A stretch of DNA of 64,000 bases from Candidatus Levyibacteriota bacterium (GTDB lineage Bacteria; Patescibacteriota; Microgenomatia; Levybacterales; UBA12049): positions 126,651 to 190,650 of the forward strand of contig JACPLF010000007.1 in assembly GCA_016186645.1 (NCBI GenBank). Reading direction: 5' to 3'. Below are positions 3,082 through 31,009 of the stretch, one piece after another. The notes beneath the pieces are model-generated. The model was not told the DNA's origin and ran no database searches. It saw nothing but the letters and a program-made list of their open reading frames with translations. Every line of letters begins with the position of its first letter. Within the stretch, counting starts at the first letter, position 1. The position numbers were made by a program, and so were the translations under genes.

Positions 3082-4749
3082 CTATGGATTAATGCGGGTG
3101 ACATCAATTGCTTCGTCTCTTTTGCTAAGGATTTCTTTCCAATTTCCTATTTTCTTAAAAATTAACAAAAATGTTGTTGCTTCTTTGACGTTGAAAAGCC
3201 AGGTTAAAAAAAGATAAAAAGAGAGTCCAATTAAACTTGATATTCCGGTCAGAAATATTAAATTTATTGTTCGTGTAGTATCAAAAACTAACTGATCTAA
3301 TAATTTTACAGGAACATATAAGGCAATACCTGTAAAAAAAGTCGCTAAGAAGATTTTAAGCGGAGAGAGAAATAATAAACCCCTAGGGAATCCTTGGACT
3401 TTTTTATTCAGAACAATAATAAGAGTGATTAATTGAAGAATATTGGTTAAGGTAAACGCGAATGCGATACTTTCAATGTTCATCTGCTTGATAATAACAA
3501 AATAATATCCAAGTATTATAAGTAATGTCGTAGAAAAGCCGCTGACAATAAGAGGAATTAACGAGTTGTGTAATGCATAAAATGCGCGATAGAAAAGAAC
3601 AATTAGAGCTTGCGCAAAAATAGAAATAGATAAGAAGGCTAAAATATGACCGGTTAGAACTGTTGCTGGCCAATCAAATTTATCTGCTCCGAAAGCCAGA
3701 CGCACGATTGGTATTCTAAGAACAAGTATAAGAATCGAGATTGGAAGAATAAGATATAGCATTTGATTGAAGCTCGTAATAAAGGTTATTTTAAAATCAT
3801 TAAGATTATTTTTTTCTCGTGAAAGAACAGGAAAAGCTGCCTGGGCAATACTGAATCCAACCAAAGAAATTGGAGCAAACATAAGCGTCTTTGCCGCATT
3901 AAAGAGTAAATGTGTGCGTCCAGGCTCAATCATAAATGCTATAATTGCAGCAAGAATAATTGTCCCTATTTGCTGTACAGCTACTTGAATCGTGCGTGGC
4001 CACATAAGCGTAAATATCTTATTGAGTCCTTTTGATTTGATAAAATTGATTGTCGGTCTAAAAGAAAATCCGACTTTTCTGGCAAGTGGAATTTGAAACA
4101 AAACAAAAATCACAGCACCCAAAACAACCCCAAGGGGAATAGCATAAATTCCGAAAAACTGATTGAATAACAAAATACCAAATATTATTCCTACATTGTA
4201 AAATGCCGCCGCAATTCCAGGTATAAAAAAATGGTTGTATGATTGCAGCATTGCGCTAAAAAAAGTACCAATTATATAGATAAGCTGGCCAACGACAATT
4301 ATCCGCATTAGATTAGCCATTAATTGCATGTCGCCGCTGGAAAAATTATGTCCACCATTAAAAATAGCAAGTAGTTGAGAAGCAAATATAGCAAGAGTTA
4401 GAGAAAGAATAATGAAAATAGCAAGCCCGACAGAAAGAAGCGTTGATGCCATTTCATGCGCAGATTTTTCCTCCCCTTTTACCAAATACTCAGAAAAAAC
4501 CGGTATAAATGCAGATGTAAGCGCTGCTGCAATAGTTAACTGAAAGATAGTGTCAGGAAGAATTGACGCATAATCGTAAATTCCTAAAGTGTTTGATGGG
4601 CCAAAAATAGAGAATGATAACCTCGTGCGGATAAGACCCAGAATATGAGACAAAACAACAGTTGTCATAATAATAAAAGCGGCGGAGAGAATATTGGTTT
4701 GACGAGTAAGAAGTATATTGATACTTTTCTTTAAAAAGTTCTGGGCCAT
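3082..4749 (-). CDS. murJ: lipid II flippase MurJ (MviN family)
   Basis: 555 aa, about 14 predicted TM helices; MurJ-like N-terminal region and conserved Arg/Asp positions; adjacent to cell-envelope genes. Confidence 0.8.
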   Translation of the reverse strand: MAQNFLKKSINILLTRQTNILSAAFIIMTTVVLSHILGLIRTRLSFSIFGPSNTLGIYDYASILPDTIFQLTIAAALTSAFIPVFSEYLVKGEEKSAHEMASTLLSVGLAIFIILSLTLAIFASQLLAIFNGGHNFSSGDMQLMANLMRIIVVGQLIYIIGTFFSAMLQSYNHFFIPGIAAAFYNVGIIFGILLFNQFFGIYAIPLGVVLGAVIFVLFQIPLARKVGFSFRPTINFIKSKGLNKIFTLMWPRTIQVAVQQIGTIILAAIIAFMIEPGRTHLLFNAAKTLMFAPISLVGFSIAQAAFPVLSREKNNLNDFKITFITSFNQMLYLILPISILILVLRIPIVRLAFGADKFDWPATVLTGHILAFLSISIFAQALIVLFYRAFYALHNSLIPLIVSGFSTTLLIILGYYFVIIKQMNIESIAFAFTLTNILQLITLIIVLNKKVQGFPRGLLFLSPLKIFLATFFTGIALYVPVKLLDQLVFDTTRTINLIFLTGISSLIGLSFYLFLTWLFNVKEATTFLLIFKKIGNWKEILSKRDEAIDVTRINP

Positions 4750-6252: not shown

Positions 6253-6545
6253 AACGAAAAGATTTTTTGATAATTCTGGTTCTTCTTTTTATTTTTGTTA
6301 TTGCCTGGATAGCAGGAAATATTTATCACAGTATCGCCACTTCAACGATATCTAATACAACAAATCAGGATATATCTCCAATTAGTCCTGCCTTTGACAC
6401 AAAGACTGTTGATAAGCTTAGGCAGAGACAAAAAGTAAATCCCGTTTTTGAGTTGAGCAATACCGCCCCAACTCCTACCCCTTTCCCTCTTGAGATATTA
6501 TCTCCTCCAGAATCATCTGAAGAAGCAAGATTAATATTGCCATGA
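6249..6545 (+). CDS. small membrane-anchored protein (PilP-like?) with PTPTP tail
   Basis: 98 aa, N-terminal TM helix, Pro/Thr-rich C-terminus; 4-nt overlap with upstream and downstream genes. Confidence 0.3.
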   Translation: MKRKDFLIILVLLFIFVIAWIAGNIYHSIATSTISNTTNQDISPISPAFDTKTVDKLRQRQKVNPVFELSNTAPTPTPFPLEILSPPESSEEARLILP

Positions 6546-7858
6546 AAAATCAATTACTTAATAAACGCATCCCCACCATCTTTGTTGTTGGGTTAATATT
6601 ATTAGGCATAGTCTTAACAACGCTTATTGTAAGAATGCAGACAAATCTCAAGAGCAATGCATCAAATTCGGAAGAACCGAAAAATGTAAAGATTACAAAT
6701 CTATCAGATAAATCTTTTACCATAACTTACCAAACGCAAGCGCTCACCACTGGGTCTGTAAGTTACGGCAACAGTAAACAGCTGGGAAATACAGAAGTGG
6801 AAGATCTTAATCCTAAAAATATTCACAGTATCAGTATACAAAAACTTGATCCTTCAACGAGATATTATCTTGTTGTAATTTCTGGTCAAAACACCTTTTT
6901 AAATAATGGCTCCCCCTTTGAGATTTCAACAGGACCTAATATCTCTTCTCCTTCTGCAGTACAGACAGCTATAAAAGGAAAGGTTCTTTTACCTGATGGG
7001 AAAGCACCTACGCAAGCACTTGTATATTTAAGCTCAGATAGTTCGCAGGTTTTGTCTACAACTGTCCAAAAAGATGGGGAATTTAGTTTTTCTCTAAAAG
7101 AACTTCGGACAAATAACCTTTCTTCATACTTTGGATTCAACGAGAATACGGTTTTTGAACTTTTGGCTGTAGATAATTCCTTAAAATCAAAAGTCTCATT
7201 TTCTTTAAATGAGACAGGTTCACTTCCCACAATTACATTGTCCAATGATTATGATTTTACTAAAGATTTTGTATCAGATGCTTCAAGTTCTGCGCAAGTC
7301 GGTTTCCCCTCTACGGCAGTCAGTTCTGAAAATTTGAAACCAGAGATATTAACTCCAAAAAAAGATCAGTCTTTCACCGATCAAAAACCGCAATTTCGCG
7401 GAACAAGTTTGCCAAATGAAGATGTGGAAATAGTAATTCATTCTGATGAAAATATACAAACTCAAGTAACAGCAGACAGTAATGGCAACTGGACATATCG
7501 TCCTCCCAATAATCTTTCTCCGGGACCTCATACGATAACAGTTAAAACTCGTGATTCATCCGGCATATTAACAACCATAATGCAGTCTTTTATTGTATTC
7601 GCACAGGGTTCCCAAGTATCAGAATCTGCTACCCCTTCCGCTGCTCCCACTCAACAGATCACGCCAACTTTGATCCCTACACTCACCCCAACACCCTTTC
7701 CATCCCCAACAATTACTCCTACTCCGTTACCAGTCTTTGTAGAGACCAAGGGTGGTTTGCCGCCAACAGGAGATTCTTCAATCCTGTTAATTATGGGAGG
7801 GGTTGTTAGTACAATTTTTGGGATCGCATTATTCCTGCTAACACGCACCGCCTTATGA
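6542..7858 (+). CDS. LPXTG-anchored surface protein with Ig-like/FN3-like beta domains
   Basis: Signal/TM at N-terminus; C-terminal ...TKGGLPPTGDSSILLIMGGVVSTIFGIALFLLTRTAL is LPPTG + TM + basic tail; PT-rich linker. Confidence 0.55.
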   Translation: MKNQLLNKRIPTIFVVGLILLGIVLTTLIVRMQTNLKSNASNSEEPKNVKITNLSDKSFTITYQTQALTTGSVSYGNSKQLGNTEVEDLNPKNIHSISIQKLDPSTRYYLVVISGQNTFLNNGSPFEISTGPNISSPSAVQTAIKGKVLLPDGKAPTQALVYLSSDSSQVLSTTVQKDGEFSFSLKELRTNNLSSYFGFNENTVFELLAVDNSLKSKVSFSLNETGSLPTITLSNDYDFTKDFVSDASSSAQVGFPSTAVSSENLKPEILTPKKDQSFTDQKPQFRGTSLPNEDVEIVIHSDENIQTQVTADSNGNWTYRPPNNLSPGPHTITVKTRDSSGILTTIMQSFIVFAQGSQVSESATPSAAPTQQITPTLIPTLTPTPFPSPTITPTPLPVFVETKGGLPPTGDSSILLIMGGVVSTIFGIALFLLTRTAL

Positions 7859-28608: not shown

Positions 28609-29466
28609 ATGGTAGATTTAACTTCGGAAAAATTAAAAGATTTAGAAAACAAAGCAAATAAGATAAGACAGATGATTATTGAAATGCTTGTTGAGGCGGG
28701 ATCAGGACATTCAGGAGGACCGCTCGGAATGGCAGATATTTTTACGAGTTTTTATTTTCATATTTTAAATCACGACCCAAAAAATCCAAGTTTGCCTGAC
28801 CGAGACAGACTAGTTTTGTCCAATGGACATATTTGTCCTGTTCAATATGCCACAATGGCTTTGGCCGGATACTTTCCGATTGATGAACTAAAAACTTTAA
28901 GAAAAATAAATTCCCGTTTGCAAGGACATCCTCATAGAAGCTCTCTTCCCGGCGTCGAAACAACTTCAGGGCCTTTGGGTGAAGGATTGTCTCAGGCAAT
29001 TGGAATAGCATTAGCCGGAAAGATGGACAAAAAAAACTATCGTGTTTACTGTCTGACATCTGACGGAGAACATGAGGAAGGAAATACATGGGAAGCAGTT
29101 ATGTTTGCGGCAAAAAATAAATTGAATAATTTAATTCAGGTTATAGACCGCAATTATATTCAAATAGATGGCAGAACAGAAAATGTTATGCCTCTTGATC
29201 CTTTAAAAGAAAAGTATGAATCTTTTAATTGGAATGCAATAGAGGTAGATGGAAATGATATTAAGAGTTTTATTGTGGCTATTGAAAAAGCCAAATCAAT
29301 GTTGGATAAACCAACTATTATAATTGCGAAAACAATTCCGGGAAAAGGTGTGAGTTTTATGGAAAATGATTATCATTGGCACGGCAAGCCGCCAAATAAA
29401 GAAGAAGCCGAGAAAGCTCTAGTTGAACTACAAGCATTGAGAGAAAAAATTATAAAAGGAGAGTAA
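28609..29466 (+). CDS. tkt: transketolase, N-terminal (TPP-binding) subunit
   Basis: GSGHSGGPLGMADI TPP motif; 285 aa; partner C-terminal subunit at 29944. Confidence 0.85.
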   Translation: MVDLTSEKLKDLENKANKIRQMIIEMLVEAGSGHSGGPLGMADIFTSFYFHILNHDPKNPSLPDRDRLVLSNGHICPVQYATMALAGYFPIDELKTLRKINSRLQGHPHRSSLPGVETTSGPLGEGLSQAIGIALAGKMDKKNYRVYCLTSDGEHEEGNTWEAVMFAAKNKLNNLIQVIDRNYIQIDGRTENVMPLDPLKEKYESFNWNAIEVDGNDIKSFIVAIEKAKSMLDKPTIIIAKTIPGKGVSFMENDYHWHGKPPNKEEAEKALVELQALREKIIKGE

Positions 29467-29943
29467 CGATTCTAATATACGAATGTATACTAATAATACG
29501 AATAGAAAAATAAATAAAGACAAACTGATATTTCCCGAACTTTCTTATATGTTAACGGGAATTTGTTTTGACGTCCATAACGCTCTGGGCAGATTCTCTA
29601 AAGAAAAACAATACTGTGATGTGCTGGAAGAAAAATTAAAAAACTCTAACATTCCTTATGAAAGAGAATTAAGAGTAAAAAATACAGGCAACATATTGGA
29701 TTTTCTAATAGATAATAAAATTATAGTGGAAATAAAGGCCAAAAGGATACTTCTAAAAGAAGACTATTATCAATTACAGCGTTATCTTCAAGTACTAAAC
29801 ATGAAACTTGGTTTATTAATAAACTTTCGGAACCGCTACTTAAAACCCGCAAGAATTATCAAAATAGACACAGATGCAAGAAAAAAATTCGTACAACAGT
29901 AGTATTAGTATAATTAGTATGCATTAGTATATTCGTATCGCTT
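29467..29943 (+). mobile_element. small inverted-repeat-flanked element carrying a PD-(D/E)xK (GxxExxY/PDDEXK_3-like) gene, inserted between the tkt subunit genes
   Basis: Left end cgattctaatatacgaatgtatactaataatacgaat and right end cattagtatattcgtatcg match the two halves of the 71-nt palindromic element at 30939-31009. Confidence 0.5.
29483..29902 (+). CDS. PD-(D/E)xK nuclease-fold protein, GxxExxY (PDDEXK_3) family
   Basis: ELSYMLTGICFDVHNALG ... ILDFLIDNKIIVEIKAKRIL ... LQRYLQVLNMKLGLLINF matches the family pattern (ELSY..IG.A..VH..LG; DLLV..KIIVELK; LNYLK..GLKLGLLINF); D-x(n)-E-x-K core. Confidence 0.7.
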   Translation: MYTNNTNRKINKDKLIFPELSYMLTGICFDVHNALGRFSKEKQYCDVLEEKLKNSNIPYERELRVKNTGNILDFLIDNKIIVEIKAKRILLKEDYYQLQRYLQVLNMKLGLLINFRNRYLKPARIIKIDTDARKKFVQQ

Positions 29944-30933
29944 ATGCTTAATCCTGATTTAAAACTCAATCAAAAATTATTTGATCAAGACGTAGAAGTC
30001 AAACCCACTCGCGCGGGCTATGGCGAAGGACTTTTGGCACTTGGAGAAAAAAATCCCAATGTTGTGGCTCTTAGTGCGGACCTGACCGAGTCAACATACG
30101 CTCATCTTTTCGCAGAAAAATATCCTGATAGATTTTTTCAATGCGGTGTTGCCGAACAGAATATGGCAGCAATTGCTGCGGGTCTTGCAGTTAGCGGAAA
30201 AATTCCGTTTATCTCCTCCTACTCAACTTTTTCTCCCGGTAAAAACTGGGAAACTATTCGAACAACTATTATTTATAACAACGCCAATGTAAAAATGGCA
30301 GGCCATCATGCGGGAATAATGACAGGACCCGATGGCGCGACTCACCAGGCAACTGAAGATATTGCAAGCGTGAGAAGCTGGCCAAACATAAAAATTCTTG
30401 TTCCTTGTGACAGTATCGAGGGGAAAAAAGCAACAATTAGCGCTTCCGAAATAACAGGCCCCATCTATCTTCGTTTTTCTCGAGATAAAACGCCAATTAT
30501 AACAACCCCTGAGACTCCATTTGAGGTAGGCAAAATTCAAACTTTTTGGACAACGGAAAATCCTGTTGCCACTATTTTTGCAACAGGGTACATGCTTTAC
30601 TATTCAATTTTGGCCGCGAAAGAATTAGAGATAGATGGAATAAAAGTATTAGTCGCAAATGTCTCAGCAATAAAACCAATGGATCAAGAAGCTGTACTTT
30701 CTTATGCTAAGAATACTAAAGCATTTGTTACTGTTGAAGATCATCAAATAACAGGCGGGCTTGGCGGTGCAATTGCAGAATTTCTAGCTAAATTTATTCC
30801 AACGCCAATGGAATTTATCGGACTAAAAGACACATTTGCAGAATCGGGCGCACCAAAAGAGCTGATTGAAAAATATGGGATGGGGAAAGAAAGTATAAAA
30901 GAAGCAGTAAGAAAAGTGATTGGAAGAAAATGA
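29944..30933 (+). CDS. tkt: transketolase, C-terminal (pyrimidine-binding) subunit
   Basis: 329 aa; Pyr domain and C-terminal domain motifs (FQCGVAEQNM, GPDGATHQ). Confidence 0.85.
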   Translation: MLNPDLKLNQKLFDQDVEVKPTRAGYGEGLLALGEKNPNVVALSADLTESTYAHLFAEKYPDRFFQCGVAEQNMAAIAAGLAVSGKIPFISSYSTFSPGKNWETIRTTIIYNNANVKMAGHHAGIMTGPDGATHQATEDIASVRSWPNIKILVPCDSIEGKKATISASEITGPIYLRFSRDKTPIITTPETPFEVGKIQTFWTTENPVATIFATGYMLYYSILAAKELEIDGIKVLVANVSAIKPMDQEAVLSYAKNTKAFVTVEDHQITGGLGGAIAEFLAKFIPTPMEFIGLKDTFAESGAPKELIEKYGMGKESIKEAVRKVIGRK

Positions 30934-30938
30934 TTATG

Positions 30939-31009
30939 CGATGCTAATATACTAATTCGTACCAATAATACGAATTTGTATCATTAGTAACATTCGTATA
31001 TTGGCATCG
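30939..31009. repeat. 71-nt nested palindromic element (cargo-less copy of the GxxExxY element ends)
   Basis: cgatgctaatatac ... gtatattggcatcg terminal inverted repeats, 1 mismatch; inner aattcgta/tacgaatt pair; fills the whole tkt-FAD oxidase intergenic space. Confidence 0.6.

Follow-up and report, generated by a model that had tools for sequence, protein, structure and literature searches.

A nuclease gene between inverted repeats at a split transketolase junction, probably one copy of a compact mobile element of Patescibacteria

Introduction

What is a small nuclease gene doing between the two genes of a split transketolase, and how did it come to be there? The question is raised by a stretch of 64 kb (G+C 35.7%; the window hereafter) from the genome of a Candidatus Levyibacteriota bacterium, in which the genes for the N- and C-terminal transketolase subunits, tktN and tktC, are separated by a unit of 474 nt that consists of a 139-aa open reading frame (ORF) between inverted repeats. 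An earlier note, made from the sequence alone, had assigned the ORF to the PDDEXK_3/GxxExxY pattern and had seen in the whole a small selfish element lodged in the inter-subunit gap. In our reading, to which we give a probability of about 0.7, this region represents one copy of a compact mobile element, largely confined to Patescibacteria (the Candidate Phyla Radiation, CPR), that spreads by the mechanism set out below. The unit is bounded, has conserved ends and one intact nuclease gene under constraint, occurs at many sites, has empty alleles, reached the transketolase junction horizontally and has given rise to derivatives that lack the gene (cargo-less copies). That it is a mobile selfish cassette of some kind we regard as highly probable; that it spreads by a homing-like route is a more tentative proposal, held at somewhat less than even odds.

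Anatomy of the element

The element and the genes next to it are laid out as follows (positions are those of the window).

29467..29940, + strand: whole element, 474 nt from CGAT to ATCG, made up of left arm, nuclease gene and right arm; an inverted-repeat pair
29467..29504, + strand: left terminal arm, 38 nt; CGAT and three to four direct units ATAC-N-AAT with a period of 9-10 nt; holds the ATG of the nuclease gene; nhmmer score 38 bits
29483..29902, + strand: nuclease gene (GxxExxY / PDDEXK_3), 139 aa; motif D73, E83, K85, Q97...Y101 intact
29903..29940, + strand: right terminal arm, 38 nt; units ATT-N-GTAT, ending in ATCG; nhmmer score 38 bits on the minus strand
30939..31009, no strand assigned: cargo-less copy, 71 nt; left arm followed directly by right arm; nhmmer matches at 30939 (+) and 30974 (-)
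28609..29466, + strand: tktN (context), Transketolase_N, E=4e-65; its stop codon abuts the left arm
29944..30933, + strand: tktC (context), Transket_pyr and Transketolase_C; its start codon lies 3 nt past the right arm

The fit between the host genes is close. The first base of the left arm is the base directly after the TAA of tktN, and 3 nt separate the end of the right arm from the ATG of tktC; because the element fits into the few bases between a stop codon and the next start codon, both host genes stay intact. An inverted-repeat search finds the two arms 84% complementary over 38 nt. The nuclease ATG (29483) is supplied by positions 17-19 of the left arm, and the first seven codons (MYTNNTN; family consensus MHTNDTN) are translated arm units. 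At the other end, the nuclease stop codon usually lies in the first unit of the right arm across copies, or adjoins that arm. The inverted repeats of the earlier note are thus present, the left one running into the first codons of the ORF as described, but the right arm of 38 nt is twice as long as the 19 nt quoted there. Across copies the full element measures about 450-480 nt and its terminal repeats about 37 nt. No promoter-like site is predicted inside it and it runs in the same direction as its neighbours, so that it is presumably read from the transcript of the host operon.

About 1 kb downstream lies a 71-nt palindrome whose halves were correctly recognized in the earlier note as counterparts of the two flanks: the left half is 84% and the right half 82% identical to the corresponding arm of the element. 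This cargo-less copy again occupies an operon gap, with the tktC stop codon 5 nt upstream and the ATG of a gene for an FAD-linked oxidase 5 nt downstream, and its left arm has lost the start codon. Another genome (L001) has a cargo-less copy at the same place. At that same tktC|FAD-oxidase position a third genome (L003, 6460-6533) shows the reverse order, with a left arm coming straight after a right arm (…GGCATCG|CGATCC…); this may be a pair of truncated copies or what is left of ends that once abutted. By blastn these are the only two sites of the element in the window, and an arm profile built from other genomes matches the window solely at the four arms, with 29-38 bits (nhmmer).

Distribution and insertion sites

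A search among 5.8 billion proteins returned 435 matches to the nuclease, all of them PF13366 members, and those with a named source come nearly all from Patescibacteria. An assembly index queried for exact matches to the window protein had no entry. When 185,579 species genomes were scanned, 180 stretches were confirmed, and 80 loci from these were kept for analysis; they represent many CPR lineages and a few metagenome-assembled genomes labelled Bacteroidota or Nitrospirae. Viral contigs gave no match in either a DNA pattern scan or a protein-profile scan. The arms bracket homologous nucleases in about 70 Patescibacteria loci, and since they recur at about 80 independent loci a chance origin is ruled out. 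Among the sequences collected, a census with the arm profile counted 84 left/right pairs, 67 with an ORF and 17 cargo-less (71-137 nt), so the further copies of the termini that the earlier note proposed to look for, with and without cargo, do exist at many junctions.

The nearest nuclease homologues, with identities of 91%, 76% and 74%, likewise lie between tktN and tktC and have the same arms. At 68-69% identity the arms are still the same and the junctions are others: dnaB|recR in one locus (L008), a hypothetical gene|ftsW in another (L011). Clustering of the flanking proteins gave 98 clusters, of which 74 have a single member, and at least 40 unrelated junctions carry the element with identical ends. 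A few sites recur, namely tktN|tktC, a junction of PilT-like and PilC-like genes (labelled by reading of the sequence alone) and one pair of uncharacterised genes. The nucleases of the tkt site form one clade, while those of the pilT|pilC-like site are scattered over the tree, which is short and noisy; this suggests repeated independent insertions at the latter.

The insertions follow a consistent geometry. In no full copy is the nuclease gene opposed to both of its neighbours, and in most copies both flanking genes are co-directional with it. Of 82 copies, 51 have the upstream stop codon 2-3 nt ahead of CGAT, and 34 have the downstream ATG 4-5 nt past ATCG. The element may be targeted to such places, or insertions elsewhere may have been lost because they disturbed operon expression. 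A target-site duplication was not detectable in the 82 copies at offsets of 0 to 4, and no direct repeat of 2-4 nt occurred in more than 16 copies, against 7-11 expected.

Among the cargo-less copies the ATG is kept in 14 of the 16 left arms read, and the right arms examined mostly have none. The cargo-less copies thus keep the left/right polarity of the full element, which suggests that they are deletion derivatives. The earlier note's alternative of an autonomous partner of a miniature inverted-repeat transposable element (MITE) suits the anatomy, but the small copies retain the polarity of the full element, and their mobilisation by the nuclease would be a supposition. Arms are also found in other arrangements. 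In L064 (from 8880 onward) a membrane protein longer than 300 aa takes its ATG and its N-terminus MNANDTNNTN from a lone left arm, an example of a host gene that starts on element sequence. In L027 (1575-2223) a nuclease ORF (1700-2095) with its own AAGGAGG upstream lies between two complete cargo-less palindromes, without a single enclosing arm pair.

The terminal arms

The consensus of 63 left and 38 right arms from other genomes, which come from the 80 loci and fit it without gaps, is CGATGCTAATATACGAATGCATACTAATGATACGAAT; unit positions are at least 90% conserved and the N positions are free. Written as a pattern the arm reads CGAT.C.AATATAC.AAT..ATAC.AAT.ATAC.AAT. Arms that share a locus are more alike (identity 0.90) than arms of different loci (0.82), and complementarity continues weakly for 1-4 nt past CGAT. 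G19, the base that creates the ATG, is conserved to at least 90% in left arms and not in right arms, from which it follows that the ATG is real and that the element has a polarity.

Inverted repeats may be kept as sequence or as a stem of RNA. At the variable positions no covariation was found between the arms, real partners being equal to shuffled ones (z score -0.2), nor was there a strand bias of G-U pairs, wobble-compatible mismatches numbering 76 in the sense and 95 in the antisense direction. With both tests negative, selection on an RNA stem was rejected as the reason for the conservation of the arms, which are conserved as sequence instead. This suggests that the repeated units are read by a protein, for which the nuclease of the element itself is the obvious candidate.

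The nuclease

The ORF was confirmed as a member of the family proposed for it. It matches Pfam PF13366 (PDDEXK_3) with E=2e-21 and 76.9 bits (cutoff 22) and NCBIfam TIGR04256 (GxxExxY) with E=4e-20 and 72.3 bits (cutoff 35), and the tktN and tktC genes on either side were likewise confirmed by Pfam. The literal G-x-x-E-x-x-Y motif is absent, as the protein has G36-RFSK-E41-KQ-Y44, with one extra residue between G and E; since it passes both hidden Markov models, the subfamily of the window is counted as a family member with a variant motif. D73, E83 and K85, together with Q97, Q99 and Y101, are invariant among 43 sequences, and the predicted structure (pLDDT 85) has an alpha-beta-beta-beta-alpha-beta core. 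On this model the protein is a Cas4/RecB-like PD-(D/E)xK core whose predicted catalytic residues are intact.

No solved homologue was found by sequence, and the structural neighbours come from fold searches only; the best are the DNA nucleases Cas4, BpuSI and Dna2, and tRNA-splicing endonucleases are also among them. The Cas_Cas4 Pfam model stays below its threshold (16.8 vs 22.7 bits), and in PADLOC, searched for membership of a defence system, there were weak sub-threshold Cas4 matches only (E 4e-4 or worse). Pfam and NCBIfam scans of the one ORF of the element gave no match to a transposase family (DDE, HUH/Y1, serine or tyrosine). The protein retains 65-75% identity across highly divergent CPR lineages. 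The gene is under purifying selection: in a comparison of the window with L002, the closest relative in which the junction is occupied, the ratio of non-synonymous to synonymous divergence (dN/dS) is 0.17. In the literature PF13366 is entered as 'Unknown', with 'multiple transfers' (PMC3424549).

Empty sites and the age of the insertion

The history of the tkt junction was traced in 80 metagenome tktN loci retrieved with the TktN of the window (66-90% identity). In none of the 80 is the nuclease or an arm found at the junction, and these include relatives whose TktN is 85-90% identical. In those nearest relatives tktN and tktC overlap (ATGCTTAA), sit a few bases apart or hold other short inserts; the empty site for which the earlier note had suggested a search does exist, one example reading GAGTAACTTATGCTTAAT. 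In L106 the junction GAATAActtATG equals that of the window minus the element (TAA|CTTATG). In the TktN tree, lineages that carry the element lie dispersed among lineages with an empty junction. The idea that the element caused the split of the transketolase was considered and rejected, since empty relatives also have separate tktN and tktC.

In comparison with L002, the synonymous divergence (dS) of the nuclease is 0.26 (92% nucleotide identity), against 1.44 for tktN and 1.24 for tktC (79%), so that by synonymous divergence the element is about fivefold younger than its flanks. A tract of 90-97% identity begins about 20 nt to the left of the element and otherwise coincides with its limits, and the flanks are at 68-80%. 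The right flank is conserved in all relatives and is therefore uninformative on co-conversion; the left tract extends for about 20 nt only. Being younger than its flanks, the element reached the tkt junction horizontally, long after the two lineages split, in a spread that was faithful to the site. L011 and L056 show the same trend more weakly, with a nuclease dS of 0.53 against 1.09 and 0.71 in the flanks. In L045 and L047 the nuclease dS equals that of the flanks and its non-synonymous divergence (dN) is 0.048, against 0.127-0.139, so that vertical persistence under strong purifying selection also occurs. The earlier note had named two findings that would speak against a selfish element, a lack of further copies of the termini and a conserved non-repetitive gene at this position in relatives. 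Beyond the two sites described, the window holds no further copies; the gene conserved at this position in several relatives is the same repeat-bounded element, not a non-repetitive gene, and its dS of 0.26 against 1.24-1.44 sets it apart from its neighbours. With the same arms at other sites, empty sites in relatives and a nuclease dS below that of the flanks, the idea of a small selfish element in the inter-subunit gap has held.

Several families of repeats share the tktN|tktC junction as a hot spot. Unrelated palindromes of 65-110 nt occupy it in L097/L098, L101, L103, L109, L112, L113, L122/L128/L138, L123, L137 and L162, and these have their own short direct units in one arm and the complements in the other. 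In L169 (about 3813-4443) the gap holds an ORF for a four-helix-bundle protein resembling 23S_rRNA_IVP, with a left flank of TAGGAGTTAGTAT units, and in L107, L118, L135, L140, L147, L166, L168, L170 and others it holds an ORF of 100-330 aa that looks membrane-bound or secreted. The split transketolase pair is often non-contiguous in this clade.

How the element may move

How the element moves is a best guess. The nuclease, probably as an oligomer, would recognise the unit arrays in the arms, and a DNA break that it makes would drive the copying of the element. When DNA is exchanged between related cells, recombinational repair would copy the element into the same junction of a naive genome, in the manner of homing. 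More rarely, the element would be joined at a new junction by host repair or ligation, a step that we assign to host functions, since an enzyme that hydrolyses DNA is unable to perform strand transfer on its own. Insertions would survive only where operon expression is preserved, which would account for the fixed geometry of stop codon and ATG, and cargo-less palindromes would arise by internal deletion of full copies.

Several points weigh against this reading. We know of no PF13366 member with demonstrated biochemical activity, DNA binding or transposition, nor of a route by which a hydrolytic nuclease of 139 aa could reach strand transfer, and the step that makes new insertions is left unexplained. 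Classic homing endonuclease genes do not have terminal inverted repeats conserved across different sites, and classic transposons make target duplications, of which none was seen here; for the tkt site, moreover, the inference of no duplication rests on a single and fairly distant empty comparator (L106, with 73% TktN identity). The copy number is low, with one full copy in 64 kb and two loci from only 4 genomes among the 80 kept loci. The low nuclease dS between the window and L002 could in principle come partly from constraint at the nucleotide level rather than from recent transfer. Finally, the co-divergence seen in L045/L047, with purifying selection above that on housekeeping neighbours, would not be expected of an element that is purely selfish and fixed, and leaves room for a host-level or addiction-type function.

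In one alternative the element is a true transposon of the cut-and-paste or copy-out kind, its nuclease binding and synapsing both arms and cutting at CGAT/ATCG, and a linear or circular intermediate then being joined between cistrons by host enzymes; the nuclease, as the sole protein encoded, would represent a new class of transposase. The CGAT...ATCG ends are indeed sharp and identical at dozens of unrelated sites, the several direct units, which look like binding sites at a helical period, resemble the ends of Tn7 and Mu, cargo-less copies keep both arms, arms are more alike within one genome than between genomes, and the ATCG|CGAT junction of L003 (6460-6533) may have been left by a circle or a tandem junction. 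Yet neither the missing duplication nor the low copy number is what this proposal leads one to expect, and PD-(D/E)xK enzymes hydrolyse DNA, strand transfer not being known for them; in Tn7 the PD-(D/E)xK protein TnsA requires the DDE protein TnsB. The single clade of tkt-site nucleases also fits site-faithful spread better than random hopping, and altogether we regard a true transposon as unlikely. We hold it to be very unlikely that the nuclease is a domesticated or addictive resident gene, kept for a benefit to the host (DNA uptake, repair or defence) or because its loss is punished, with the repeats as regulatory sites and mobility a thing of the past. Such a gene would suit the strong purifying selection in the apparently vertical pair L045/L047 (dN 0.048 vs 0.13 at equal dS), the 65-75% protein identity across very divergent CPR lineages and the occupation of the tkt site in several lineages. 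It is at odds with the empty sites of the nearest relatives and the youth of the element relative to its flanks, with the frequent cargo-less remnants and unrelated insertion contexts, with the lack of an antitoxin or methylase partner within the 474 nt, and with PADLOC matches to Cas4 that are weak and sub-threshold.

A third proposal places the function in RNA. The stem of the two arms would loop out the nuclease cistron, to be cut by RNase III as in the intervening sequences of 23S rRNA, or to bring stop and start codons together for translational coupling, and the nuclease itself may act on RNA, for which the tRNA-splicing endonucleases among its structural neighbours can be cited. The arm-arm stem of the full-element transcript is predicted to close a loop of 400 nt (minimum free energy -93.5 kcal/mol, z=-2.8), the cargo-less copy folds strongly as RNA (-23.8 kcal/mol, z=-5.05), and in most copies stop and start codons lie within a few nt of the base of the stem. 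In the window AAGGAG lies just upstream of the insertion, and with the element looped out its distance from the tktC ATG would be normal for a Shine-Dalgarno sequence. As a general mechanism, restoration of the Shine-Dalgarno spacing by the hairpin was dropped, because the motif precedes the left arm in just 8 of 51 copies, and in these genomes it is found at 9% of starts against 11% of random 16-mers. The arms neither covary nor show sense-strand G-U enrichment, Rfam found one tRNA elsewhere in the window and nothing at the element, the best structural matches are DNA nucleases, and spread to new sites is left unexplained. An RNA device is thus improbable as the primary function, and it is compatible with the mobile-element reading as a reason why insertions are tolerated: a predicted stem in the transcript may help to make them harmless.

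Related cassettes and wider significance

An exhaustive HMMER search with the window nuclease collected 1,746 clusters at 50% identity, many of which are long proteins with the domain embedded in frame. In L175 (2001-4700), checked at the DNA level, an uninterrupted RecG ORF of 899 aa has a GxxExxY domain in frame (about 3372-3830) between helicase motifs II (DEQHRFG) and III (SATPIPRTL); the flanking repeats are degenerate. Another RecG (P0141) has an insert at the same place, and the glycosyltransferase-like proteins P0142, P0147 and P0132 have one full nuclease cassette and 1-3 cargo-less copies in frame (...NTNNTN..., ...HSDxFVxSD...).

Other small genes are found in similar settings. In L011 two small GIY-YIG genes (4130-4507 and 6461-6865), each in a different GC-rich inverted repeat (GGGATCCCTTTT / AAAGGGATCCC), lie between operon genes (NifU-like, FtsW, MurG). 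The pilin operon of L174 has two 23S_rRNA_IVP genes (1698-2048 and 3834-4193) and, fused to a pilin-like ORF, a GxxExxY ORF. L047 has a second GxxExxY paralogue (1226-1720), a more distant one with variant units ATCCGAAT / ATTCGGAT, and the repeat unit in L058 is ATACGGAT; these two cases hint that nuclease subfamilies and repeat units change together. The element of the window looks like one family among a wider range of small-gene cassettes bounded by repeats in CPR genomes, a range that is for the most part uncharted. The literature that could be searched yielded no account of an element of this kind. More generally, PF13366/GxxExxY proteins might be the enzymes of an unrecognised class of prokaryotic mobile elements, in which the only protein reads arrays of 8-nt units, no target duplication is made, the mechanism is unlike that of DDE, HUH, serine and tyrosine recombinases, and harm is avoided by intercistronic or in-frame insertion (as in RecG); this extension is doubtful at present and is offered as a speculation.

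The proposal gives a concrete and testable role to a large family of unknown function, PF13366/TIGR04256, and would add to the list of mobile elements a compact cassette of nuclease and repeats whose movement chemistry fits no established transposase class. It also concerns the question of how selfish DNA is tolerated in streamlined CPR genomes, where intergenic DNA is nearly absent, and the arm units with their 139-aa protein would make an easy system for studying how a minimal Cas4-like nuclease recognises specific sequences. In annotation, cargo-less and in-frame copies account for unusual gaps and N-termini (MHTNDTN...) and for seeming fusion proteins among CPR gene calls.

Comparison with known systems

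With insertion sequence (IS) elements and MITEs the element shares terminal inverted repeats of about 37 nt, a single ORF, palindromic derivatives of 70-140 nt in which both ends are retained, occurrence at more than one site per lineage, and polymorphism for presence or absence. It differs from them in having neither a recognised transposase nor a target duplication, in its low copy number and in being co-oriented with the flanking genes in most copies. A review of MITEs from 2024 makes no mention of endonucleases or Patescibacteria (PMC10969869). The cargo-less copy at 30939-31009, an imperfect palindrome in a transcribed operon gap with a predicted stable RNA hairpin, is reminiscent of the enterobacterial repetitive intergenic consensus (ERIC), Correia and repetitive extragenic palindromic (REP) sequences. 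However, those families have no such coding partner, whereas the present arms do not covary and a full form bearing the nuclease exists. REPs are linked to the HUH transposases of the REP-associated tyrosine transposase (RAYT) type, and unlike these and IS200/IS605, the ORF of the element has no HUH (Y1) domain detectable by Pfam.

Rickettsia palindromic elements are selfish sequences that sit in frame within protein-coding genes (PMC10969869). Sister GxxExxY cassettes and cargo-less copies are likewise read through in frame (RecG in L175; the glycosyltransferase-like P0142, P0147 and P0132), but the Rickettsia elements carry no enzyme gene, and the copy in the window is intercistronic with its own start and stop. 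The ORF-bearing intervening sequences of rRNA also have small ORFs between inverted repeats in transcribed, highly conserved CPR DNA; the present element is outside rRNA, encodes another protein family and has neither arm covariation nor a sign of RNase III processing. A survey of CPR rRNA insertions lists LAGLIDADG, GIY-YIG and 23S_rRNA_IVP ORFs, and PDDEXK is absent from its main text (PMC11270868). From the Cas4/RecB nucleases the protein differs in its size of only 139 aa, its score below the Cas4 threshold and its neighbours, which are tkt and not cas genes.

The remaining comparison is with free-standing homing endonuclease genes, such as seg and mob of T-even phages, and with the PD-(D/E)xK homing enzyme I-Ssp6803I. 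The element differs from these in its conserved terminal repeats at many sites and in its hosts, which are cellular CPR bacteria, viral matches being absent. Like them, it is a single small nuclease gene between conserved genes, at a junction that is occupied or empty among relatives and with an age below that of its flanks, and its intact, ORF-less remnant and empty-site states match the stages of the homing cycle.

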